Notes: generated by a model not told the origin, from the sequence alone. A stretch of DNA of 64,000 nucleotides from Patescibacteria group bacterium (GCA_041747555.1 JBGTEY010000010.1:2958-66957); one strand, 5' to 3'. Counted from the first letter of the stretch, positions 1,156 to 12,779 are shown. Translations and numbers: made by a program.

Positions 1156-1584
1156 ATGACCAAAGGCATCAACTACATCGGCGTTTCCGTTTCTTTTTTC
1201 TGTCATGATGGTAAGGGGAATTATTTGTTCAGCAAACGAAGTAAAAACTGTCGTGATGAGCATGGTCGCTGGGATCCGGGTGGTGGTGGAGTGGAGTTTG
1301 GCGAACGCGTAGAAGAAGTCCTCAAAAAAGAAATCAAAGAAGAATACTGTGCCGATATCCTAGAAAAAGAATTTCTTGGGTTTCGTGACGTGCACCGCAC
1401 CCATGATGGCCAACAGACCCACTGGGTGACGTTGGATTACAAAGTGTTGCTTGATCCAACGCAGGTTAAGAACGGCGAGCCACATAAATTTGATGAGCTG
1501 GCGTGGTTTCGGCTCGATGCGTTACCCGAGCCGATGCATTCCCAGTTTGGGTTGGCGGTGGAGCAGTATGGGGATAAGTTGTAG
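1156..1584 (+). CDS. NUDIX hydrolase
   Basis: Nudix box GGGVEFGERVEEVLKKEIKEE (Gx5Ex7REUxEExGU). Confidence 0.75.
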   Translation: MTKGINYIGVSVSFFCHDGKGNYLFSKRSKNCRDEHGRWDPGGGGVEFGERVEEVLKKEIKEEYCADILEKEFLGFRDVHRTHDGQQTHWVTLDYKVLLDPTQVKNGEPHKFDELAWFRLDALPEPMHSQFGLAVEQYGDKL

Positions 1585-1586
1585 AC

Positions 1587-2645
1587 TCAGCCTTTGTCCT
1601 CTGCAAACGACGCCTTCATATCAATCACAAACCGCTTCGACATCATCTTATTGGTCAAAGAATCCCAAGCCTTATTAATATCTTCCATCGGAATAATCTC
1701 AATTTCTGGTAAAATTCCATGCTCCGCGCTGTACTCGAGCATTTCTTGGGTTTCTTTGATGCCGCCGATGCCAGAGCCTGCAATAGATTTTTGACCGTTT
1801 ATGACACTCCCGGAGTGATATCCAGGCATTGGCTCGATTGGCCCAACCAAGCACAGGGTGCCATGTACATTTAGCAATCCTAGATATGGGGTTACATCAT
1901 GGGCTTTTGGAATGGTGTCGAGGATAAAATCAAACTTGTGAGCAGCTTTTTCCATGTCTTTTTTAGAAGAAGAAACGATTACGCCAGTTGCGCCATAGGA
2001 TTTAGCAGTATCAGCCTTATCTGCAGATGAAGTGATCACCCAGACCTCTGCACCCATCGCCTTTGCATATTTCACTGCCATGTGCCCAAGGCCACCAAGC
2101 CCAGCCACGGCCACGGTCATGCCTGGCCCAACTTTCCAGCGACGAAGCGGTGAATAGGTGGTGATGCCCGCACACAGTAATGGAGCAGCTTCTGCCAGAT
2201 CGAGTGATTCTGGTAAATGCAAGACAAAATGCTCTGGGACGACAATTAAAGTAGAGTAGCCGCCTTTGGTATCGGTGCCATCGACAGGGTCTTTGGAGCT
2301 GTAAGTCCACACGGTAGCATCGAAACATGCATTCTCATACCCACGCTCACACGCGCCGCACTCGCCACAGCTATTGACCATGCAGCCAACCCCAACGCGG
2401 TCACCGACTTTAAAATTTTTCACGTCTTTACCCACGCGAGTCACAAATCCCACAATCTCATGCCCGGGAACACACGGATACTCAACCTCACCCCAATCAC
2501 CATGGGCTGTGTGGATGTCGCTGTGACAAACGCCACAGTAATGAACTTCTATTTCGACGTCGGTGGCGGTTGGTTCGCGGCGGTCAAATTCGTGGTAGGT
2601 AAGAGGTTTATCAGCGGCAGGCGCTGCGAAGGATTTGGTTTTCAT
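1587..2645 (-). CDS. Zn-dependent NAD(P)-linked alcohol dehydrogenase (MDR superfamily, cinnamyl-ADH/YahK-like)
   Basis: Catalytic-Zn motif CGVCHSD...GHEIVG, structural-Zn Cys cluster CGECGACERGYENAC, and Rossmann motif VAGLGGLGHMAV. Convergent with the NUDIX gene at a 2-bp gap. Confidence 0.85.
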   Translation of the reverse strand: MKTKSFAAPAADKPLTYHEFDRREPTATDVEIEVHYCGVCHSDIHTAHGDWGEVEYPCVPGHEIVGFVTRVGKDVKNFKVGDRVGVGCMVNSCGECGACERGYENACFDATVWTYSSKDPVDGTDTKGGYSTLIVVPEHFVLHLPESLDLAEAAPLLCAGITTYSPLRRWKVGPGMTVAVAGLGGLGHMAVKYAKAMGAEVWVITSSADKADTAKSYGATGVIVSSSKKDMEKAAHKFDFILDTIPKAHDVTPYLGLLNVHGTLCLVGPIEPMPGYHSGSVINGQKSIAGSGIGGIKETQEMLEYSAEHGILPEIEIIPMEDINKAWDSLTNKMMSKRFVIDMKASFAEDKG

Positions 2646-2739
2646 AATTTTATTATCTCATGGGGGTGGGGTTTTGCAAGGGAGTTGAAAGGAAGCGTTG
2701 ATATAGTTTGGTATCGCAATGTATCATTGCTTGCGGTAT

Positions 2740-2824
2740 GTTACATTAGAGTTGACATTATATGAATAATAGTTTACATTAGAGTTTACATTAAGATTAA
2801 TTATATTACATTAAGGATTACAAT
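2740..2824. promoter_or_regulatory. Array of T(T/G)ACATTA direct repeats in a divergent promoter
   Basis: TTACATTA or TGACATTA at 2741, 2753, 2774, 2786 and 2806, plus a degenerate TTACAAT at 2818. They are organised as two 21-22 bp units GTTACATTAGAGTTGACATTA and GTTTACATTAGAGTTTACATTA. The array lies between the ADH start (2645, minus strand) and the regulator start (2829, plus strand). Confidence 0.5.
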
Positions 2825-2828
2825 AAAC

Positions 2829-3851
2829 ATGACAATCAAATCACTAATTCTAAAAATTGCAGACAAGAAAAAAAAGATGCAAACCTCAGATATCCAGAGG
2901 AAAACTAACGAATATACGAGACAGTATATCGTGCAAAACTTAAAGGAGCTCACGAACAGTGGGCAATTGGTCAGGTTTGGAGCGGGTGCAGGAACGTTTT
3001 ATACACTGCCAGAAAATGTAATGTCTCTGAATAATAAATTAAAAAAAAGACTAAAGAACAAAAACCTAAAGGAGCACGAAATATACTTTCATTTTGAACA
3101 GAAACTTCATTTGAAGGAAACACTTGACGAAAACGTATATAGTATTTTTACTTATGCATTCTCAGAAATGTTAAATAATGCAATTGAGCACTCCGAATCA
3201 GAGAATATCGAAGTGAGTTATTTTGATAGTAAAAAAAATATATCTTTTGAGATTAGAGACTTCGGCATTGGTGCATTCAAAAATGTACAGCATAAGCATA
3301 AGTTGAAATCAGAGCTAGAGGCCATTCAAGATATACTTAAAGGTAAGACAACCACGAATCCCAAAGCCCATTCTGGTCAAGGAATTTTCTTTACTTCAAA
3401 AATTGCTGATTTATTTATTCTCGAGAGTTATGGGTATCGGTTGAGAATCGATAATGGAATCCCAGATACCTTTATCGAGAAGGTATCACCAAGTGCTAGA
3501 GGCACTAAAGTAAATTTTACTATCAGCGCAAATTCTGAAAAGCATTTAAGTGATGTTTTTTCAGCCTATCAGACAGATCCCGATGGGTATGACTTCGATA
3601 AAACCAGAATTCTAGTTAAGCTATACACATTAGGAACTGTGTATGTGTCTCGGTCTCAGGCAAGGAGAATACTAGCTAGTTTGGAAAAATATAAACATAT
3701 TGTTCTTGATTTTCAAAATGTACCAACGATAGGACAAGCGTTTGCCGACGAGATTTTCAGAGTCTTTCAAACCAGACACCCCGATATAGTTATTGAGCCC
3801 GTTAATATGGTAGAAACAGTGGAATTCATGGTTAAGCGAGTTGATAGGTAG
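2829..3851 (+). CDS. Putative one-polypeptide regulator: N-terminal winged-helix-like segment + GHKL (RsbW/SpoIIAB-like) ATP-binding domain + C-terminal STAS-like (DUF4325) domain
   Basis: N-box EMLNNAIEH, G1 box IRDFGIGA and G2-like GQGIFFTSKIAD. C-terminal SRSQARRILASLEKYKHIVLDFQNVPTIGQAFADEIFRVF resembles the DUF4325 STAS-like domain. Confidence 0.5.
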   Translation: MTIKSLILKIADKKKKMQTSDIQRKTNEYTRQYIVQNLKELTNSGQLVRFGAGAGTFYTLPENVMSLNNKLKKRLKNKNLKEHEIYFHFEQKLHLKETLDENVYSIFTYAFSEMLNNAIEHSESENIEVSYFDSKKNISFEIRDFGIGAFKNVQHKHKLKSELEAIQDILKGKTTTNPKAHSGQGIFFTSKIADLFILESYGYRLRIDNGIPDTFIEKVSPSARGTKVNFTISANSEKHLSDVFSAYQTDPDGYDFDKTRILVKLYTLGTVYVSRSQARRILASLEKYKHIVLDFQNVPTIGQAFADEIFRVFQTRHPDIVIEPVNMVETVEFMVKRVDR

Positions 3852-3925
3852 GGTGCGCGTGGAACTCAGTCCAATGCTCCAGCATTGCAATTCGAATCTA
3901 ATCGGTCCTCTGCTACAATATATTC

Positions 3926-4345
3926 ATGAAATTCCTCAACGCAGACCAAGAACTCGTAGAGTACGACGGCTCTCCCATAACCTGGAGAGTTTCAGCATAT
4001 GCACTTATTGAAAAAGATGGCGAAATTTTCATCATAAAAAATAAAACAGAAAAATTGTACGACATCGTGGGTGGTGGCGTTGAAATTGGCGAAACCATTG
4101 ACGAAGCCCTGCAGAGAGAATGTTTAGAAGAAGGTGGCATCACTATCCAGACTGGCAAGTTGCTGCACGCCCATGTTGATTGGTTTTATCACAAGAGCGG
4201 GACGTTTTTTCAGACGTGTCAGCTATTTTATAGAGCGACCATACAAGAATACTTAGATGCACCCACTGATGATGCTATGGAATGGCGGGGATTTGTTCCC
4301 GTGTCTGAGATTGGCAAAACATATCGATTGCCACCAATTGTATAA
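3926..4345 (+). CDS. NUDIX hydrolase
   Basis: Nudix box GGGVEIGETIDEALQRECLEEGG. Confidence 0.7.
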   Translation: MKFLNADQELVEYDGSPITWRVSAYALIEKDGEIFIIKNKTEKLYDIVGGGVEIGETIDEALQRECLEEGGITIQTGKLLHAHVDWFYHKSGTFFQTCQLFYRATIQEYLDAPTDDAMEWRGFVPVSEIGKTYRLPPIV

Positions 4346-4377
4346 CAAGTCATTGCAGAAAATACATAGGAGAAATC

Positions 4378-4983
4378 ATGCCAAAAGCACCAAAAAACCC
4401 AAGTAAGCCAATCGAGCGCGCAGAAATGAGGCAGACGCTCACCGCAGAAGAATGTCAGATGATCCTCAAAAAACTCCAGAATCGTTTTGATGCAAACATG
4501 CAGCGACACAAGGGCATGACGTGGTCCAGCGTTCATGAAAAACTTAAAAAACACCCCAAGAAATTACTCACACTCGAGGCAATGGAACGCTCAGGCGGTG
4601 AACCTGATGTGGTGGTGCTCAAAGGTGAATCTGACAAAGTAATTTTCATAGACTGCTCCCCAGAAAGCCCAAAAGGCCGCAGGAGCACCTGCTTTGATCC
4701 AGAATCACTCAAATCCAGAAAAGAACACAAGCCAAACGCCAGCGCGGTTGGCATGGCGAAAGCTATGGGTATTGAAATCCTCACAGAGCAGCAGTACAGA
4801 CAACTACAAGAAGTCGGGGAGTTTGATCTCAAGACCTCTAGTTGGGTTCAGACTCCTGCTGCCATCAGAAAGCTTGGTGGAGCGCTGTTTTGTGACCGGC
4901 GGTATGATGCGGTTTTTATGTATCATAATGGCGCGGAGTCGTATTATGGATCGAGAGGGTTTCGGGGGATGGTGCGGGTTTGA
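4378..4983 (+). CDS. DUF4256 family protein
   Basis: 201 aa. The pattern ...HKGMTWSSVHEKL...ERSGGEPDVV...CSPESPKGRRSTCFD...EHKPNASAVGMA...SSWVQTP..IRKLGGALFCDRRY...YHNGAESYY is characteristic of DUF4256. Confidence 0.6.
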   Translation: MPKAPKNPSKPIERAEMRQTLTAEECQMILKKLQNRFDANMQRHKGMTWSSVHEKLKKHPKKLLTLEAMERSGGEPDVVVLKGESDKVIFIDCSPESPKGRRSTCFDPESLKSRKEHKPNASAVGMAKAMGIEILTEQQYRQLQEVGEFDLKTSSWVQTPAAIRKLGGALFCDRRYDAVFMYHNGAESYYGSRGFRGMVRV

Positions 4984-5038
4984 GTGAGGTAGACGCGATG
5001 CTTGTCAGTTGGGGTGACGAAAAGTAGCGCTCTAATGA

Positions 5039-5743
5039 TTACATCCTTTTGAAATCTCTAAACACATGTTTTGTTACTTTTGCAATTACGCCCCTGGGCA
5101 TTTGAGGCAATGCTGCGAGTGATTTCAATGCAAACGTTGTTGCTAAAACAACTGCAAGTGAGAGACGATTATGATGCGCGATCTGTCCTTTTTCCCTATC
5201 TTCTTCGATATCAATAAGTGAATCAAATATATTTGCAGCCTGAGCAACGGTGGTGAGCCATTTTTTAATGTTTTCAAACTCGTTTTTGTCGATATCATCT
5301 TCAATGATGCTCAGTAGAAAATCGATTGTTGAGACTGCTTCAGTGAGTGTGCTCTTGGTGAATGATGTTACGCTTTGAGCGTTTTTTACGAGCTCTGTAG
5401 TTTGAAAAAGCTGTATGGCTTTCATTCTAACCTTCTTCGATTTTTCAGGTGGAAAGGAGGCAACATAGTACTTAAGGAAAATTTGCGGGAAAGACATTTG
5501 ATCAATGCTAACTTCTGTTTCAGAAAACAATTGATCGACAAGCGTTGTCGCAACCTGATTGCGCTTTTCATTTGACGGTAGTGCATCAAGTATTTCGTCA
5601 GCTTCCTTAATAGCCATCATGGCATATTGAAGTATTTGTTCAACTTCATGACGTTCAACACTCGGATCTTTACATTCAATTAGCCTAGCAAGGTAGATTC
5701 CTGCATCTCCGTATAGCTTGGTTGGTCGCGTAATTTCGTGCAT
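5039..5743 (-). CDS. Hypothetical protein; weak resemblance to head-to-head trans-isoprenyl diphosphate synthase (squalene/phytoene synthase-like) fold
   Basis: 234 aa. Has D49-EIL-D53 and QAANIFDSLIDIEEDREKGQI (res 168-188, DxxxD at 174-178 and 178-182). Their spacing is like the two Mg-binding DxxxD motifs of CrtM/SQS/PSY (..NIxRDxxEDxxxGRxY). The protein is shorter than canonical members. Confidence 0.45.
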   Translation of the reverse strand: MHEITRPTKLYGDAGIYLARLIECKDPSVERHEVEQILQYAMMAIKEADEILDALPSNEKRNQVATTLVDQLFSETEVSIDQMSFPQIFLKYYVASFPPEKSKKVRMKAIQLFQTTELVKNAQSVTSFTKSTLTEAVSTIDFLLSIIEDDIDKNEFENIKKWLTTVAQAANIFDSLIDIEEDREKGQIAHHNRLSLAVVLATTFALKSLAALPQMPRGVIAKVTKHVFRDFKRM

Positions 5744-5808
5744 GAGGCGTATATATTGATATGTTGGCTCGATCAGTACTTTTTGCTATATAATTATACA
5801 TCAAAACC

Positions 5809-7347
5809 ATGCTAAAGCGCACAATTGAACTAGCTAGAAACACTTTGCAAGCAAAGAATGACTTCCAGGCTCTCAAAATGAGAAGGCCAGTTAATTTTTT
5901 TGAAGTCACTGCATTTGGTTCTCTCATGTCGCTGTCAAAAGACCTACCGGCACCATCAAAAATGGGGATACAACATCTGTATCTGCTTCAAGATTTTATG
6001 GAGCGCCAAAACTTTCGCACTGATGAGGCAGGTATGAGTGAGTCAATCTGGGACCAGCAATGCATTCTAGAGCTCCATGCACTACTGTCTCAGATAGCAG
6101 CTGAGTATGAGAACACACATGGTGACGATGCAGAATCTCGTTTCTCGGTATTTTTTTCAGCTCTACAAGCTTGGTACTGCAGTAATCCGATTATCGAGGA
6201 TTTTATTCATGAAAAACAAGCTCATCCAGATCCAGACCAGTCAGCCATCTTGAACAGGATATCTAACACAGACCCATCAGAAAGAGCAAGTGTTCATAAA
6301 GAGGAAGTAGCCATGCTTTGGATTTCTGCATCATTAGCCGCATTGTATGAGGGGTCGAGTACAGAAATTGAAAGTGCCACTGAATGTACGCATACACTGA
6401 CAATGCTCTATCAAGTTTCTGAAGATTTTGTTAATCTCGAGCGAGATTGGAGGGTGAATAAAAAATCGCTATTCACGTCTGGTTTTGATTCGCTTCAAGA
6501 AGCAAAGCGAGCAGGGCTGAAATTGTTCTTAAAATATTTGCAGAAATACTTTTCTGTGATAGAAAATAATTTTCTAAAGCTTGTTATTGTAGAAGTTTGG
6601 CTTGTGCGTACTATTCACGCGTATTTGGCAGCAAAGAAGTATGGCACTGTCTGGCGTCAAATTGATCGATATCAATCCGCAGATCTAAAGGAGCGGCAAA
6701 TAGGTGGAATGCATTTAGATAATTCTTTACAACTCCCGCTCAAGGGGGGATTGAAGCCACTCATTGCCCAGTCCAAACATTCAGATGTGTATCAGCACGA
6801 GGATGTGGTGATCAAGGTCCCCAAAAAGGCGCGCGAAAGTACACACACGCTTGCTGAAATAGTGGAAGTACCAGAGGGCATGCGAGTTGAGTCAACCAGT
6901 GATGTTTTGATATCAGGGAATGATGCCGAAGGAATGCAAATATCAGTACAGAAAAAAGTTGATGGTTCTACACTGAGAAACATGGGTTTAGAAGGTTTGT
7001 CAGTAGATGCACTGCAGTCACTTCTGCAGCTGAATGCAATCGAGCAGAACTTGCTGCGCGACGGCATGTTCTTTGACTCGGTTGGCAGGGGTTCTGAATC
7101 GAGTGACGGGATGCTCACTAAGGTAAAAATGCTCCTAAATTTGTATGGATACTCCTCTAATATCATGCAATCTCAGGATGGAGAACTAGTTATTATTGAT
7201 GAGGAAGTATATGACAACAAATCCCCATTATTTCGTTTCGTCATCGGGGTGGCACTGAAGCTAAATAGGCTGAAACTATCAGGACTAGCTAAAAAGCAGC
7301 CTAATTTAAAACCAAAATCCCGGCATTCAAAAGCGTCGCAAAACTAA
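5809..7347 (+). CDS. Hypothetical 512-aa protein: helical N-terminal half, C-terminal half with a protein-kinase-like motif order (speculative)
   Basis: Divergent from 5039..5743. C-terminal VVIKVPKK (beta3-Lys-like), LLRDGMFFDS (catalytic-loop-like) and LVIIDEEVYD (DFG-like Asp) occur in kinase order. No confident family assignment. Confidence 0.5.
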   Translation: MLKRTIELARNTLQAKNDFQALKMRRPVNFFEVTAFGSLMSLSKDLPAPSKMGIQHLYLLQDFMERQNFRTDEAGMSESIWDQQCILELHALLSQIAAEYENTHGDDAESRFSVFFSALQAWYCSNPIIEDFIHEKQAHPDPDQSAILNRISNTDPSERASVHKEEVAMLWISASLAALYEGSSTEIESATECTHTLTMLYQVSEDFVNLERDWRVNKKSLFTSGFDSLQEAKRAGLKLFLKYLQKYFSVIENNFLKLVIVEVWLVRTIHAYLAAKKYGTVWRQIDRYQSADLKERQIGGMHLDNSLQLPLKGGLKPLIAQSKHSDVYQHEDVVIKVPKKARESTHTLAEIVEVPEGMRVESTSDVLISGNDAEGMQISVQKKVDGSTLRNMGLEGLSVDALQSLLQLNAIEQNLLRDGMFFDSVGRGSESSDGMLTKVKMLLNLYGYSSNIMQSQDGELVIIDEEVYDNKSPLFRFVIGVALKLNRLKLSGLAKKQPNLKPKSRHSKASQN

Positions 7348-7771: not shown

Positions 7772-7844
7772 TGGTGTTAGTATGATGAAATTTTAGGTGG
7801 TGCGCAATGGAGTGTTGGCTAGTAGTTGATGATATGATTCAAGA

Positions 7845-8351
7845 ATGACAGAAATATCAAAATCCCACGCCATAAAAACCCTCAACACCGAGTACCAACG
7901 CTGGAACTCTTTTTTATCTAAAGTAGACGACACTACTGCACTCCAGGTTCTCTACGACAACCGACGCCTCAAAGACGAGGTGGCACACCTGTGGGCATGG
8001 CAGGTGTTGTCAGTTGCGCGGTTGAAGGCGGTGATTGAGGATACTGATCCTGATTTTTCTGAAATTATTAAGGATGATTTTGTACCTGAGAATGATGAGG
8101 AATGGGATGCGTTTAATGAATTAGTTTTTGTCACCTATCACGCAAAATCATGGAATGAAATCTATCAAGATTGGCAGGAGAATTATCAGAACTTCATGTC
8201 TCTGGCAGAAGAAATTTCTGAGGAGGTGTATTTAGAGCCAGGGTTGTTTGCATGGATGGGTGGGCAGGCGTTGATTGATGTGTTGTATGGGTCGGCGGGG
8301 CATCATGGGGGGCATTGGGGGAGTGTGGAGAAGATGAAGGGGTTAAAGTAG
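7845..8351 (+). CDS. DinB/YfiT-like four-helix-bundle protein (tentative)
   Basis: 168 aa, helical, with a C-terminal His cluster GHHGGHWGS reminiscent of the DinB_2 HxxHHRGQ motif. Low-confidence assignment. It sits 28 bp upstream of the MazG-like gene. Confidence 0.3.
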   Translation: MTEISKSHAIKTLNTEYQRWNSFLSKVDDTTALQVLYDNRRLKDEVAHLWAWQVLSVARLKAVIEDTDPDFSEIIKDDFVPENDEEWDAFNELVFVTYHAKSWNEIYQDWQENYQNFMSLAEEISEEVYLEPGLFAWMGGQALIDVLYGSAGHHGGHWGSVEKMKGLK

Positions 8352-8379
8352 CCTGTTTTTGATACAATACTACTCAAGA

Positions 8380-8709
8380 ATGAAAAAAATACTCCAAAAG
8401 TTACTTGAGTTTAGGGAACAACGTGATTGGCATCAATTTAATACACCTCAAAATATAGTAAAATCGATTGTTCTTGAAGCTGCGGAGTTACTCGAGGTCT
8501 TTCAATGGAAAATTAATGAGAAAATTGATTCCGAGGAAAAAGAAAAGATAGCAGAGGAAATGGCAGATATTTTCAACTGGTTGATCCTCCTTTCCCATGA
8601 CTTAAACATTGATATTCAAAAAGAGGCTCTAAAAAAAATAAAGCAAAATGCTGAAAAGTATCCAGTCAATAAATCAAAAGGTAGTCCCAAGAAATATACA
8701 CGCTTATGA
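8380..8709 (+). CDS. MazG-like nucleotide pyrophosphohydrolase (small all-alpha NTP-PPase)
   Basis: LEFREQRDWHQFNTPQNIVKSIVLEAAELLEVFQW...EEMADIFNWLILL matches the MazG-like/YpjD-type signature. The track ORF begins at TTG 8359; ATG 8380 is preferred. The stop overlaps the next start as ATGA (8706-8709). Confidence 0.6.
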   Translation: MKKILQKLLEFREQRDWHQFNTPQNIVKSIVLEAAELLEVFQWKINEKIDSEEKEKIAEEMADIFNWLILLSHDLNIDIQKEALKKIKQNAEKYPVNKSKGSPKKYTRL

Positions 8710-10577
8710 TCGTTTACCAATCTACAAAGAAGCAGTTTTTAGTTGATGCGGCAAACGGGATTGAAGACATGATCCTTGATAAGGTTTCTGCAAACCTAGG
8801 GATGCGTGTTCAAGAAAATGGCAGTGAGTACAATTCCTGGAAAAACTCACTCGGCAACTACATGTTTCATGTGATGAATGATGAGGCAATTGCTGATGAT
8901 GTGAATGTTGCGGTTGAATACTCGATTCCTCGTACAAAAAATAGGATAGACTTTATTATTACTGGACTTGATGAAAACAACGAAGAAAAGGTAATTATTA
9001 TTGAGCTCAAGCAATGGTCTGAGGTTGGAGTAACGAACAAAGATGCAATTGTATCAACTCGGTTTCAGCATGGAGTAACTGAAACTAATCACCCCTCATA
9101 TCAAGCTTGGTCCTATTCAACATTACTTAATAATTTTAATGAAGTTGTCTATTTAGAGAATATCGATTTAATTCCGTGCGCATACCTACATAATCATCAG
9201 GATGATAATACCGTCACCAATGATATTTATAAGGAGTACTTGGTAAAAGCACCCCTTTTTTGTAAAGGTGAAAAAGAAAAGCTCCAAAAATTTATAACCA
9301 AATATGTAAAAAGTGGTGGAAGTAAGGATCTTCTCTATCGAATTGATTCCGGAAATGTAAGGCCAAGTAAAGAATTGGCTGATAGTCTTGCATCTATGAT
9401 GCTTGGAAATAAAGAATTTGTGCTCATTGATGATCAAAAGTTGGTTTACGAGACTGCTTTGGATCTTATTAGAAAAAATGAAGATACACAGAAACAGGTG
9501 TTTATTATTGAAGGTGGTCCAGGAACGGGAAAGTCAGTAGTAGCAATCAATTTGCTTGTAACTGCTATTCAAAACAAACTGAATGCGCACTACGTTACAA
9601 AAAACGCTGCGCCAAGAGCAGTTTTCGAGGCAAAGCTCACTGGGTCAATGACTAAGACAAAAATTCATAGCCTTTTCCAATCGTCGGGGGCATACATACA
9701 TGCAGAGCAAAATGAAATTGACGTTCTGATTGTGGATGAAGCTCATCGATTGAATGAGAAAGGTGGTATATTTAGCAATCTTGGTGAAAATCAAATCAAA
9801 GAACTAATTTATGCCGCCAAGACTTCTATATTTTTCATAGATGAAGATCAAAGGGTAACGTGGAAAGATATTGGTGAAAGCAGCGCAATAGAAGTGTGGG
9901 CTAGAAAATTGGGTGCAAACGTAAATCGGGCGAAATTGGAATCTCAATTTAGATGTAACGGCTCTGATGGATACCTAGCATGGCTTGATCATGTGCTTGA
10001 AATAAAGGAAACTGCAAATACCTCGCTACGAGGTATTTCATACGATTTTCGCGTTTTTGATTCGCCAACAGAAATGCGTAATGCTGTAATCTCAAAAAAT
10101 ACAAAAAATAAAGCTCGAATTCTAGCTGGTTATTGTTGGGACTGGGTCAGTAAAAGAGATAAGTCTTTGGCAGATATTGAATTTCCTGAATTTGATTTTT
10201 CCATGCAGTGGAATTTAACTGATGATGGCTATACGTATGTAATAGCTCCAAATTCAATAAATCAAGTGGGATGTATCCATACCGCACAGGGGCTCGAGCT
10301 TGAATATGTTGGTGTAATTATAGGTAAGGATTTATCGATAAGGAACTCGAGGGTGGTCACGGATCCTAGTGGAAGGGCAAAAACTGACAAATCACTCCAT
10401 GGCTACAAAAGAGATTTAAAGGCAGGTATCGAGGGTACTGAGGCAAAAGCTGATCTTTTGATAAAAAATACATATAGAACTTTGATGACGAGGGGAATGA
10501 AGGGATGTTTTATTTTTTCTGAGGATGAAGAGACGAGAGAATACTTTAGGAGTAGAATTGGTAAATTTTTTATCTGA
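8706..10577 (+). CDS. DUF2075-family ATPase/helicase-like protein with N-terminal PD-(D/E)xK-like nuclease motif
   Basis: 623 aa. N-terminal RIDFIITGLDENNEEKVIIIELKQW has the D...ExK spacing of the restriction-endonuclease fold. Walker A IIEGGPGTGKSVV and Walker B VLIVDEAHRL are present. The overall layout is that of DUF2075 proteins. Confidence 0.7.
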   Translation: MIVYQSTKKQFLVDAANGIEDMILDKVSANLGMRVQENGSEYNSWKNSLGNYMFHVMNDEAIADDVNVAVEYSIPRTKNRIDFIITGLDENNEEKVIIIELKQWSEVGVTNKDAIVSTRFQHGVTETNHPSYQAWSYSTLLNNFNEVVYLENIDLIPCAYLHNHQDDNTVTNDIYKEYLVKAPLFCKGEKEKLQKFITKYVKSGGSKDLLYRIDSGNVRPSKELADSLASMMLGNKEFVLIDDQKLVYETALDLIRKNEDTQKQVFIIEGGPGTGKSVVAINLLVTAIQNKLNAHYVTKNAAPRAVFEAKLTGSMTKTKIHSLFQSSGAYIHAEQNEIDVLIVDEAHRLNEKGGIFSNLGENQIKELIYAAKTSIFFIDEDQRVTWKDIGESSAIEVWARKLGANVNRAKLESQFRCNGSDGYLAWLDHVLEIKETANTSLRGISYDFRVFDSPTEMRNAVISKNTKNKARILAGYCWDWVSKRDKSLADIEFPEFDFSMQWNLTDDGYTYVIAPNSINQVGCIHTAQGLELEYVGVIIGKDLSIRNSRVVTDPSGRAKTDKSLHGYKRDLKAGIEGTEAKADLLIKNTYRTLMTRGMKGCFIFSEDEETREYFRSRIGKFFI

Positions 10578-10597
10578 TAGCTAAAGAATAATTCCCT

Positions 10598-11083
10598 ATG
10601 CATTCCCACCAATATTTTACCACTTACAAAACCCTCCCCAGCCCCAAACTCATCGAAGCAATCTGCAACCTCGTCTTCACCGACAACCGCGCCATGCCTG
10701 CGCATTACACCAGCAACGGTGGGACGCAGTCGTTTTGTGTTGATTTTGATGGCATTCAGGAGGACGACGAGTATCAAATGGCGTCGGTGGCATTTTATCA
10801 AGTGCATGACTATATGGAAGATGCGGACAATCTTTCTGACTCAGATCGGGCAATGATCATACGGTGTGGTGAGGATTTGATGATTAGCTCCTATATCTTG
10901 CATACTCTTGAGAGAGTAGAGGTGCTCGAAGAAGTAATCGAGTGGCTCACCCAAGCAAATCTTGAGGGCTGGCCCGTTGAGGAAGGCGCAGAGCGAGTGT
11001 TTGGGACGGAGTCTGCACGGAAATGGTTTGCGTTTTGTGTGGAGTATGGTGGGGAAGTGGCTACAAAGGCTCGTTCAATCTAA
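10598..11083 (+). CDS. Hypothetical acidic protein (161 aa)
   Basis: Starts 20 bp after the DUF2075 stop on the same strand. Strongly acidic. No recognisable motif. Confidence 0.45.
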   Translation: MHSHQYFTTYKTLPSPKLIEAICNLVFTDNRAMPAHYTSNGGTQSFCVDFDGIQEDDEYQMASVAFYQVHDYMEDADNLSDSDRAMIIRCGEDLMISSYILHTLERVEVLEEVIEWLTQANLEGWPVEEGAERVFGTESARKWFAFCVEYGGEVATKARSI

Positions 11084-11154: not shown

Positions 11155-11373
11155 CTACCTGCTCCGTTCCGCCTTTTCAACTTCGCCGGCAACGTCAACT
11201 TCTTGCACCTCATTATCATCCCCATCTTGATACAGCCCGACTTCTTCGACCTGTTCATCAATCGAATCGTCTGATTCTGGATTGGTCATGTGACCGCTAA
11301 CACTTTCTTCATCGTGCTCTTGTGGTGTTTCTAGTTCTTCTTCAGTAATGGTGCTTGCAGGTGTCTGTTGCAT
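11155..11373 (-). CDS. Hypothetical very acidic small protein (72 aa)
   Basis: Only ORF in the 436-bp gap 11084..11519. About 40% Asp/Glu. Could be non-coding. Confidence 0.25.
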   Translation of the reverse strand: MQQTPASTITEEELETPQEHDEESVSGHMTNPESDDSIDEQVEEVGLYQDGDDNEVQEVDVAGEVEKAERSR

Positions 11374-11519: not shown

Positions 11520-12779
11520 TTGAAAAAAGACATACTAGTTTTCATGAACACCACAAACACCCAAACCACTGGCACGCTTTTTACATCCCTTCTTGGCGCA
11601 GAAATTTCACCAGAGCAAGAAAATGACCACTTTCTTCTCAGCCTCTACGTCCCCAATGACAGCTCTAAATTGCAGGTTAGCCAGGTTATCAAATCCCATA
11701 TTTCCCGGGCATTCAAATCTCAAGAATCAACCAAAGATTTCATGCGCGTTGCAGATGCAATTACCGAAGTGTTTGAAAAACACGTGCACGACACGCCAGA
11801 GCTTTTGGAAGGCATGGCATTCTTTACCCCCTTCCAACTGACCACTGATCGTCCAGAGGATATCCGTGAAAAAATCGTGTCTGAGATGATTTTTATCAAA
11901 CTCCACAGCGCACCACAACCAAATGCAACGATTGGCACAATATATAATCTTGACCAGCTGGCATTCATCACCCAGCGGCAATTTTATGCGCATGTGCTCC
12001 ACGTGACCAGAAATGAAGCTGATGTCTATCAATACGACACGCAAAGTTTTGAGAAAATATTCACTATTGAGAACCCTTATTTAGTAGACAAAGAAAAAGA
12101 ACATCTAGAATTTTATGGACCAAGTCAAGGAAAGCGAGTCGTACATGGTACAGGGAGCAATAAGCTTTCTAAGCGCGAAGACAAAGAAAACGAGCAATTT
12201 CTGAAGCGTGTCATCGAATCATTTGAAAAAAAAGTCCCGGTCACCGACCAGCACGAGCTCCTGTTCGTCTACTACTCAGAAAACTTTGAAGATCACATCA
12301 AGGACGCAGTAGATGCACTCGACAAAAAACGCAAAAACCTCCACTGCATCCTCATCGACAAAAATCACCCTACGGCCAGCGAGCTCAAAAAGGCAACCAC
12401 ACAAGAGCTCAAAAACCATCGCAACAAAGCAACGGACACCGTACTCAATGCACTAAAAAATAACCGCAGTACCTTTGCAGTTGGCTGGAACGACGTCACC
12501 AAAGCCAGTCGCCACGGCATGATTGAAGCACTCATTATCAAGGTTGGCGCAGAACAAGAGGGGTACCTCCTAGAAGACTACCTCTACAGCTACCCAATCA
12601 TGGGATCAAGCAAGGTGGACTCTCTGTATCGGCACTTGGTGCGAGCTACGATCCAGAGTGGGGGAGAAATATATCTCATTGATAAGGGTCTGCAGAAAAA
12701 AAATCCGTTACATGACATAGAAGTCGCTGCGCTCATACCGAGCCATGCTGATTTTCTCAATATCACAGATTCTGATTAA
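11520..12779 (+). CDS. eRF1/Pelota-like three-domain protein (bacterial release-factor-like, baeRF-type), GGQ motif absent
   Basis: VHGTGSNKLSKREDKENEQFLKRVIESF aligns with eRF1 central-domain [29 protein letters not shown] with GGQ replaced. LLFVYYSENF matches GLVLAGSADF. FAVGWNDVTKASRHGMIEALIIKVG matches eRF1 domain-3 [20 protein letters not shown]. The track ORF starts at TTG 11520; an alternative ATG is at 11544. Confidence 0.5.
   Translation: MKKDILVFMNTTNTQTTGTLFTSLLGAEISPEQENDHFLLSLYVPNDSSKLQVSQVIKSHISRAFKSQESTKDFMRVADAITEVFEKHVHDTPELLEGMAFFTPFQLTTDRPEDIREKIVSEMIFIKLHSAPQPNATIGTIYNLDQLAFITQRQFYAHVLHVTRNEADVYQYDTQSFEKIFTIENPYLVDKEKEHLEFYGPSQGKRVVHGTGSNKLSKREDKENEQFLKRVIESFEKKVPVTDQHELLFVYYSENFEDHIKDAVDALDKKRKNLHCILIDKNHPTASELKKATTQELKNHRNKATDTVLNALKNNRSTFAVGWNDVTKASRHGMIEALIIKVGAEQEGYLLEDYLYSYPIMGSSKVDSLYRHLVRATIQSGGEIYLIDKGLQKKNPLHDIEVAALIPSHADFLNITDSD

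Follow-up and report, generated by a model that had tools for sequence, protein, structure and literature searches.

A horizontally spread two-gene cassette in a Patescibacteria genome couples a predicted DCTPP1-type pyrophosphohydrolase to a putative nuclease-helicase and may be a defence module of the Nhi-like type

The DNA analysed here is a stretch of 64,000 nucleotides from a Patescibacteria group bacterium (GCA_041747555.1 JBGTEY010000010.1:2958-66957), referred to below as the window. Four open reading frames (ORFs) follow one another on the same strand, of which ORF2 encodes a MazG-like protein and ORF3 a large protein with a nuclease-like N-terminal domain ahead of a DUF2075 ATPase (Table 1). 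An initial annotation of the sequence had described the four as a single operon, and the layout is present as described: 28 bp separate ORF1 from ORF2, 20 bp separate ORF3 from ORF4, and ORF2 and ORF3 overlap in an ATGA. The conserved unit, however, consists of two genes, ORF2 and ORF3, and not of four. The closest relatives of ORF3 (L081-L083; 81-86% amino-acid identity) have a MazG-like gene immediately upstream with the same overlap, and blastn showed that nucleotide similarity between these loci and the window is confined to the segment from 8350/8380 to 10558/10573. The fraction of G+C (GC) is 0.33 in ORF2 and 0.375 in ORF3 as compared to 0.456 in ORF1 and 0.497 in ORF4. Homologues of ORF1 and ORF4 were found in none of 163 related loci, comprising 80 species-representative loci from GTDB, 80 metagenome loci and the three closest relatives. 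Since the ends of similarity and the shift in GC coincide at the ends of the cassette, and since the flanking genes have no counterparts elsewhere, we define the unit as ORF2 plus ORF3.

ORF2 had been recognised as an all-alpha MazG-like nucleoside triphosphate (NTP) pyrophosphatase, and profile searches agree, with a match to PF12643 (MazG-like) at 3.7e-15 (56.4 bits, cutoff 27). More specifically it is of the DCTPP1/RS21-C6 type. Among PDB sequences it matches DCTPP1/RS21-C6 (6sqw, 2a3q) at 9e-18 over nearly its full length and an archaeal pyrophosphatase (4qgp) at 7e-16, and it also matches the pyrophosphatase family phrog_3301 at 4e-15; PADLOC gave no match. In mouse DCTPP1/RS21-C6 its four metal ligands, E33, E36, E60 and D63, have counterparts at E-x-x-E and E-x-x-D positions that we take to be E63, E66, E95 and D98. 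Across 69 partner sequences the ORF2 ligands are conserved to 99-100%, which indicates selection for catalysis, and the RDWxQFH and FQW motifs are likewise conserved. We predict from these similarities that ORF2 is a catalytically intact DCTPP1/RS21-C6-type pyrophosphohydrolase acting on NTPs or deoxynucleoside triphosphates (dNTPs). The ERDWxQFH and ExxE...ExxD motifs are common to ORF2, DCTPP1/RS21-C6 and the integron protein iMazG, with all four ligands kept, whereas DCTPP1 is longer (170 aa as compared to 109 aa) and lacks the obligate genomic association with a nuclease-helicase that ORF2 has. Mammalian DCTPP1 prefers 5-modified deoxycytidine triphosphate (dCTP). An in-frame TTG at 8359, upstream of the ATG of ORF2, is likewise open.

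The C-terminal two thirds of ORF3 form a complete DUF2075 ATPase of superfamily 1 (SF1). Residues 263-607 match PF09848 (SLFN-g3_helicase) over all of its 354 positions (1-354) at 1.5e-101 (340.6 bits), and the Walker A (GGPGTGKS) and Walker B (LIVDEAHRL) motifs that the initial annotation had named are present and conserved. A Foldseek search with an AlphaFold2 model of ORF3 of modest quality (predicted local distance difference test score 65) retrieved RecD2, Dda, SLFN11 and Upf1 with E values from 1e-8 to 1e-6 at a TM score of about 0.3 (6.9e-8 for SLFN11, 7zel), and the C-terminal part is accordingly modelled as an SF1 helicase fold; a PDB sequence search with ORF3 gave no match. The C-terminal helicase domain of human SLFN11, SLFN5 and SLFN13 belongs to PF09848 as well. 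ORF3 does not, however, carry the N-terminal tRNase core of the Schlafen proteins, and its own N-terminal domain is unrelated to theirs. It is this tRNase nuclease core, not the DUF2075 helicase, that defines the bacterial 'Schlafen' defence proteins (PMC13056530).

We consider the N-terminal domain of ORF3 to be a putative PD-(D/E)xK nuclease of the NERD/HsdR-N-like kind. It contains the stretch RIDFIITG...IIIELKQW, whose D...ExK motif had been noted initially as restriction-endonuclease-like and which turned out to be strongly conserved: 24 close homologues show no variation at E71, D82, E100 and K102, and across 82 sequences these four residues are at least 95% conserved. Among 27 diverse members of 22-53% identity, E71, R80, D82, E100, K102, W104, H129, P130 and Y137 are invariant and Q133 is nearly so. 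The Q-x3-Y after the ExK recalls a motif of the RecB family. In the predicted structure E71, D82 and E100-x-K102 are located on consecutive strands (67-73, 80-88 and 94-102) that follow a helix (40-57), an order that in the model is that of the PD-(D/E)xK core. Structure searches with the domain did not confirm the PD-(D/E)xK fold. ORF3 matched no nuclease Pfam model, and a profile of the diverse N-terminal domains found no match among PDB sequences. Searches with the 27 relatives gave sub-threshold matches to NERD in 5 of them (best 5e-4, 20.7 bits with a cutoff of 22.1), to PDDEXK_9 in 2, and to HSDR_N_2 and DUF2726 in 1 each, all of which are presumably families of the PD-(D/E)xK clan. The assignment is thus drawn from motifs and weak profile matches, and it receives indirect support from sister clades in which a GIY-YIG domain takes the place of the N-terminal domain ahead of DUF2075. 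The domain is found in 1424 representative clusters and is almost invariably N-terminal, in proteins of about 620 aa or, when an S24 peptidase domain is present, of about 790 aa.

Table 1. Position of the cassette, its functional residues and its flanking genes within the 64,000-nucleotide window
Feature	Position	Strand	Description or basis
Two-gene cassette, ORF2 + ORF3	8350-10577	+	conserved; blastn extent and GC
ORF2	8380-8709	+	109 aa from ATG; MazG-like, DCTPP1/RS21-C6 type
ORF2 metal ligands	E33 8476-8478; E36 8485-8487; E60 8557-8559; D63 8566-8568	+	alignment with DCTPP1
ATGA stop/start overlap, ORF2/ORF3	8706-8709	+	read from sequence; translational coupling
ORF3	8706-10577	+	623 aa; N-terminal nuclease-like domain and DUF2075/Schlafen-group-3-type SF1 helicase ATPase
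ORF3 N-terminal domain (aa 1-245)	8706-9440	+	putative NERD/HsdR-N-like PD-(D/E)xK nuclease
N-terminal domain residues	E71 8916-8918; D82 8949-8951; E100-L-K102 9003-9011	+	conserved motif
N-terminal domain H129-P-S-Y-Q133-x-x-x-Y137	9090-9116	+	conserved motif
Walker A GGPGTGKS (aa 270-277)	9513-9536	+	invariant in 24 close homologues; at least 95% in 82 sequences
Walker B / helicase motif II DEAHR (aa 344-348)	9735-9749	+	invariant in 24 close homologues; conserved in 82 sequences
ORF1	7845-8351	+	168 aa; borderline DUF1706; flanking, outside conserved module
ORF4	10598-11083	+	161 aa; acidic, no family; flanking, outside conserved module

Linkage of the two genes was assessed from both sides. 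From the DUF2075 side we used the best 80 species-representative loci out of at least 584 in the one-genome-per-species GTDB. A MazG-like gene stands beside the DUF2075 gene on the same strand in 68 (phmmer) or 69 (hidden Markov model) of these 80 loci, as the proposed co-occurrence of the two genes across genomes would have it. At least 3 of the 11 loci that are devoid of a MazG-like gene are interrupted by contig ends, and the partner is kept in about 89% of assessable loci. The translational coupling that the initial annotation had read from the overlap recurs as well: the junction is a 4-nt overlap in 15 related loci and a gap of at most 21 nt in most others, with a reversed gene order in the Halomonas group. 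Starting from the MazG-like side, in metagenomes, 74 of 80 loci could be assessed, and tblastn detected an adjacent DUF2075 gene in 44 of them; three further loci have a GIY-YIG-DUF2075 gene cut at the contig end, giving 47 of 74. The DUF2075 partners belong to at least three clades (the ORF3 clade at 47-56% identity, a clade at 31-37% and the GIY-YIG clade) and both gene orders occur. The pairwise identities of the two genes are correlated (r 0.56, Mantel p 0.001, 69 loci), which shows that they are inherited as a unit, and the linkage is far above chance. No MazG-DUF2075 fusion was present among the retrieved proteins. Neither of the two computable outcomes that would have spoken against the initial annotation, DUF2075 homologues unlinked to MazG-like genes and a variable D...ExK motif, was observed.

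The ORF3 family comprises more than 8000 proteins below 1e-10, the top 120 of which are at least 60% identical to ORF3 over their full length. With 52-75% identity, its loci in the GTDB species genomes are distributed over many bacterial phyla and also some archaea, including Patescibacteria, Bacteroidota, several proteobacterial classes, Verrucomicrobiota, Nitrospirota, Desulfobacterota, Elusimicrobiota, Acidobacteriota and one metagenome-assembled genome (MAG) of Methanobacterium. Plasmids of Halomonas, Hymenobacter, Methanosphaera and Halalkalicoccus carry the DUF2075 gene, and complete E. coli genomes contain no copy of the pair. One 22-kb record labelled 'Microcystis phage' carries the pair; a scan of 2.9 million viral contigs gave 9 matches, of which 2-3 were full-length, and we rejected the idea that the pair is mainly a phage gene on these numbers. 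Taken together the pair is conserved, co-inherited, intact and spread horizontally across phyla.

The surroundings of the pair agree with the conflict or defence role that the initial annotation had suggested. Within 6 kb we found genes for PLD-ResIII-DUF3427 helicase-nucleases in 13 loci, HNH_2 genes of two families in 9, RhuM/Fic in 7, AbiEi/AbiEii in 6 and SRA in 2. PADLOC applied to the 120 nearest neighbouring ORFs returned 6 members of mREase_IV, the methyl-directed type IV restriction enzymes (best 4.6e-234), 8 of PbeA, as well as PDC-S05 and PDC-S23. An adjacency of DUF2075 and DUF3427 has been noted earlier in the McaZI group (PMC6765204). The composition of the module itself also varies. 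At least 31 of the 80 close homologues carry a C-terminal S24 peptidase of the LexA/UmuD type, in which the GDSM serine, the lysine and a Cys-Gly site are present, and S24 has been fused independently to some GIY-YIG-DUF2075 relatives, the serine motif being GDSM or GESM (the fused forms include P0028, P0029, L101 at 4318-6540 and L093 at 1526-3517); the Cys-Gly site was noted in the clade with the PD-(D/E)xK-type domain. The presence of the serine, the lysine and the Cys-Gly site suggests that the long forms could be switched by self-cleavage triggered by RecA filaments. The ORF3 of the window is a short form devoid of the S24 domain.

Several loci show further arrangements. Two of them, both in Patescibacteria, have a RadC-like JAB gene (PF04002, about 1e-40) between the MazG-like and DUF2075 genes and form a three-gene variant (L023 at 5314-5997, Saccharibacteria; L046 at 5295-5993, a Microgenomates MAG). 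A TPR-repeat gene adjoins the module in seven loci (L024, L037, L054, L076, L078, L080 and L086, in the last at 3629-5647). It lies on the same strand and just upstream where its position was checked, some of these loci being devoid of MazG; one of the TPR-repeat proteins gave a weak match to the TPR-S 'sensor', and the protein may be an optional third component. On plasmid pBT62A of B. thuringiensis (L085, 3322-7752) a distant full-length homologue of ORF3 (24.5% identity) is found in a same-strand run with an unrelated MazG-type NTP pyrophosphohydrolase, an HNH endonuclease and a small HD-domain protein, which may represent an independent association with nucleotide hydrolases. A Hymenobacter canadensis plasmid (L084, 6001-9987) carries two DUF2075 paralogues in tandem, with 53% and 33% identity to ORF3, directly downstream of genes for a restriction endonuclease, a DNA methyltransferase and DUF4747. 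In P0246 (1068 aa) a second SF1 helicase, RecD/Pif1-like by eye, is fused C-terminally to a body made of the N-terminal domain and DUF2075. Among the MazG-like relatives, three stand-alone genes 43-45% identical to ORF2 (L111, L132 and L148) have a conserved context in common, with FabB/ketoacyl-synthase-like, alpha/beta-hydrolase-like and PurU-like genes as judged by eye, which indicates that the enzyme family also has housekeeping members.

ORF3 resembles known defence proteins. PADLOC, whose use had been suggested with the initial annotation, returned weak matches for ORF3 to PDC-S41 (4.1e-14, 49.8 bits, aa 3-318), to Nhi (3e-13, 47 bits, aa 235-418 on profile positions 178-331 of 470) and to AbiO (1e-12), the latter two being limited to the P-loop region. 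As a reference for Nhi-like we took the B. cereus FSL H8-0482 protein from the supplement of Millman et al. 2022. This protein matches PDC-S41 at 8.8e-76 (253.6 bits), which identifies PDC-S41 as Nhi-like, and it matches HSDR_N at 7e-5. Alignment of the ORF3-clade profile with Nhi-like by hhalign was collinear (41-351 with 41-318; E 4.9e-4, probability 32%) and placed the E-Y...D...E-x-K segments of the two together; BLASTP between ORF3 and Nhi-like extended over the P-loop region only (E 0.008). These comparisons point to ORF3 as a remote homologue of Nhi-like that has the same architecture, an N-terminal nuclease-like domain (E...D...ExK...QxxxY) followed by a DUF2075 ATPase, and that probably lies outside that family at the sequence level. 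Membership in the Nhi family proper was rejected, given the restriction of that match to the P-loop.

Nhi-like is a validated single-gene system that protects against phage on its own (10.1101/2022.05.11.491447), whereas the ORF3 clade has a conserved pyrophosphatase partner and often a C-terminal S24 peptidase. Phages escape Nhi-like through loss of a DNA methylase (10.1101/2022.08.27.505566), and Nhi-like therefore appears to be sensitised by DNA modification; for the ORF3 clade a link to DNA modification is given by its type IV restriction neighbours. Nhi itself (S. epidermidis SERP2475; Bari et al. 2022) combines a PD-(D/E)xK nuclease and a DUF2075 SF1 helicase in one polypeptide, the arrangement predicted for ORF3, and its immunity requires residues of both (10.1101/776245). 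Its N-terminal domain differs from that of ORF3, however, it ends in a glyoxalase-like domain and no MazG partner has been reported for it. Nucleotide-hydrolysing enzymes do occur in conflict modules, namely in the nucleotide-depletion defences based on dCTP deaminase or dGTPase and in E. coli mazEFG, but these enzymes are of other families; the ORF2 type is paired with a nuclease-helicase and depletion by it would be hypothetical. The searchable literature yielded no account of a MazG/DUF2075 pair, and PADLOC v2.0.0 does not include it as a two-gene system. DefensePredictor mentions MazG-containing predicted systems, with no sign in its text of a DUF2075 partner. As far as the pair is concerned, these searches agree with the earlier statement that this is not a described named system. 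ORF3, as a remote homologue of Nhi-like, would however be an effector of a known kind, which the initial annotation had missed.

We favour, at a probability of about 0.6, the interpretation that the cassette is a horizontally acquired two-gene module directed against phages or mobile elements, a variant of the Nhi-like type. The pairing of a DCTPP1-like enzyme with a nuclease-helicase is probably an undescribed variant of defence. ORF3 would be the effector, its nuclease-helicase degrading or unwinding invader DNA as Nhi does, probably DNA that is modified or replicating. ORF2 would act on the deoxynucleotide pool, most likely on dCTP or 5-modified dCTP. This would either deprive phages of modified precursors or prevent the incorporation of salvaged modified nucleotides into host DNA, which thereby would not become the target of its own effector. 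In the long homologues self-cleavage of S24 stimulated by RecA filaments would be the likely switch. A role in the removal of modified dCTP is speculative and is favoured because of the preference of DCTPP1, the link between Nhi-like and phage methylation and the neighbouring readers of modified cytosine. We would go further only tentatively, and regard it as a rather doubtful proposal that ORF2 serves as self-immunity or as a second line of attack by destroying 5-modified dCTP made by phages or salvaged from degraded DNA.

Several observations weigh against a defence module of this kind. The substrate of ORF2 is predicted from its homology to DCTPP1, and the defence role of the ORF3 clade is predicted from sequence. 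ORF3 matches Nhi-like/PDC-S41 weakly (49.8 bits; 32% probability in hhalign), and its match to Nhi covers the P-loop region only. Partners of ORF3 may not be needed for defence, given that Nhi-like works alone. The recurrent neighbours listed above are present in about 30 of 80 loci, and their enrichment is a qualitative one. The window itself has no obvious defence island around the cassette; we found TspO, DUF4256, unassigned ORFs and a weak baeRF-like match. Finally, 30 of the 74 MazG-like relatives are stand-alone genes, some of them in housekeeping contexts.

Other roles have to be weighed against defence by invader degradation. The pair could be a toxin-antitoxin or abortive infection system in which ORF3 is a self-targeting toxin restrained by ORF2, enzymatically or by binding, and whose main role is stabilisation of mobile elements or killing of infected cells. 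Such a system would fit the 4-nt overlap of a small gene with the large one downstream of it, the co-inheritance of both and their presence on plasmids, and mazG is part of the E. coli mazEFG operon. One S. aureus homologue of Nhi is moreover toxic when expressed (10.1101/776245). We nevertheless think it unlikely: conservation of the ORF2 catalytic residues at 99-100% speaks for a chemical function and not for binding alone, the close homologues that have no partner (about 10%) are nevertheless intact, several clades have the reverse gene order, and Nhi-like alone is tolerated in B. subtilis (10.1101/2022.05.11.491447). If ORF3 were instead a sensor or ATPase that activates ORF2, the latter could drain dCTP or other dNTPs and halt phage replication. 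Depletion of dNTPs is an established strategy, used by dCTP deaminase and dGTPase systems (10.1101/2022.08.27.505566), and ORF2 is predicted to be an intact dNTP pyrophosphatase. Such a division of labour seems very unlikely to us in view of the invariant nuclease-like motif of ORF3, of the sister clades in which GIY-YIG replaces the N-terminal domain, implying that the nuclease is under selection, and of the need of Nhi for both its nuclease and its helicase residues (10.1101/776245); ORF2, constitutive and only 109 aa long, also has no obvious regulatory surface.

A role in genome maintenance would bring the pair close to animal SLFN11 and DCTPP1: a damage-responsive helicase-nuclease would process stalled forks or damaged DNA while the pyrophosphatase removes non-canonical dNTPs. 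The LexA/UmuD-type peptidase of many homologues would fit such a system, DCTPP1-type enzymes are sanitisers of the nucleotide pool, some MazG-like relatives are found in housekeeping contexts and the adjacent ORF1 has a borderline similarity to DUF1706, which we take to be a DinB/ClbS-like family. Core repair genes, however, do not show the patchy spread across phyla at 52-75% identity and on plasmids that we observe here; the neighbours are restriction, Abi and Fic genes rather than repair genes, ORF1 is not kept beside the pair and ORF3 has a validated defence protein among its homologues. We hold this role to be decidedly improbable. The operon of four genes proposed originally, with a DinB-like protein, a MazG-like enzyme, a nuclease-ATPase and an acidic immunity-like protein acting together, is suggested by the common strand and the short spacers. 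It is already contradicted by the lack of ORF1 and ORF4 homologues in the 163 loci, by the break of DNA similarity and GC exactly at the ends of the pair and by the different company that homologues of ORF4 keep, and is barely credible.

If the pair is indeed a defence system, a house-cleaning dNTP pyrophosphatase would join the accessory enzymes of immunity, and control of the nucleotide pool would be connected with nuclease-helicase immunity. It would also be a bacterial case of cooperation between homologues of two human proteins, DCTPP1 and the Schlafen-type helicase, with the LexA-like fusion offering a testable model of effector switching by RecA filaments, and a Patescibacteria (Microgenomates-like) genome would carry an imported defence-type cassette. 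The more doubtful proposal, destruction of 5-modified dCTP, leads us to speculate that phages would be unable to build protected DNA while the host chromosome would never gain the mark that its effector attacks. Phage T4 has a dCTPase together with nucleases specific for cytosine-containing DNA, and the bacterial pair would then be a mirror image of this strategy. It would represent an ancient pairing of the two activities that in humans belong to DCTPP1 and to the SLFN11-type helicase, and the LexA/UmuD-like domain would couple its long forms to RecA filaments.

The flanking genes were examined on their own. ORF1 had been called DinB-like; its match to DUF1706 is borderline (25.6 bits in a profile search with a cutoff of 24.2), and as a member of the module it was rejected, with no homologue beside the pair in any related locus. 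ORF4 is acidic as stated earlier (isoelectric point 4.42), and it has no match in Pfam, NCBIfam, PADLOC or PHROG and only 9 homologues in a collection of 5.8 billion proteins. One of these (L176, 5001-5489) has a Macro-domain gene on either side, within a series of small genes that looks phage-like, and another (L177, 2132-2608) lies directly before an ADP-ribosylglycohydrolase gene adjoining a type I restriction-modification system; no DUF2075 gene was found near these two, the ORF4 homologues whose surroundings were examined. Because of these Macro and ADP-ribosylglycohydrolase neighbours, and with no homologue beside the ORF2-ORF3 pair, the idea of ORF4 as an immunity protein was discarded. 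Its genomic company suggests instead a rare family linked to conflicts over ADP-ribosylation.

In a promoter and terminator scan of the locus, sites were no commoner than after shuffling of the sequence, and the genes were not separated by a terminator. Direct or inverted repeats that would mark an insertion were not found at the flanks, and across the whole window neither Rfam nor a tRNA scan gave a match. The start regions of ORF1 and ORF2 have in common a 25-nt stretch that is 80% identical (7832-7856 and 8367-8391; ..TCAAGAATGA..). It shows no evident Shine-Dalgarno-like motif and may be a common context of translation initiation. Downstream of ORF4 the window contains an extremely acidic ORF of 72 aa with no family on the minus strand (11155-11373) and, on the plus strand, an ORF of 419 aa (11520-12779) with weak matches below cutoff to baeRF_family3 and to MSMEG_1130 hibernation-factor-like proteins.

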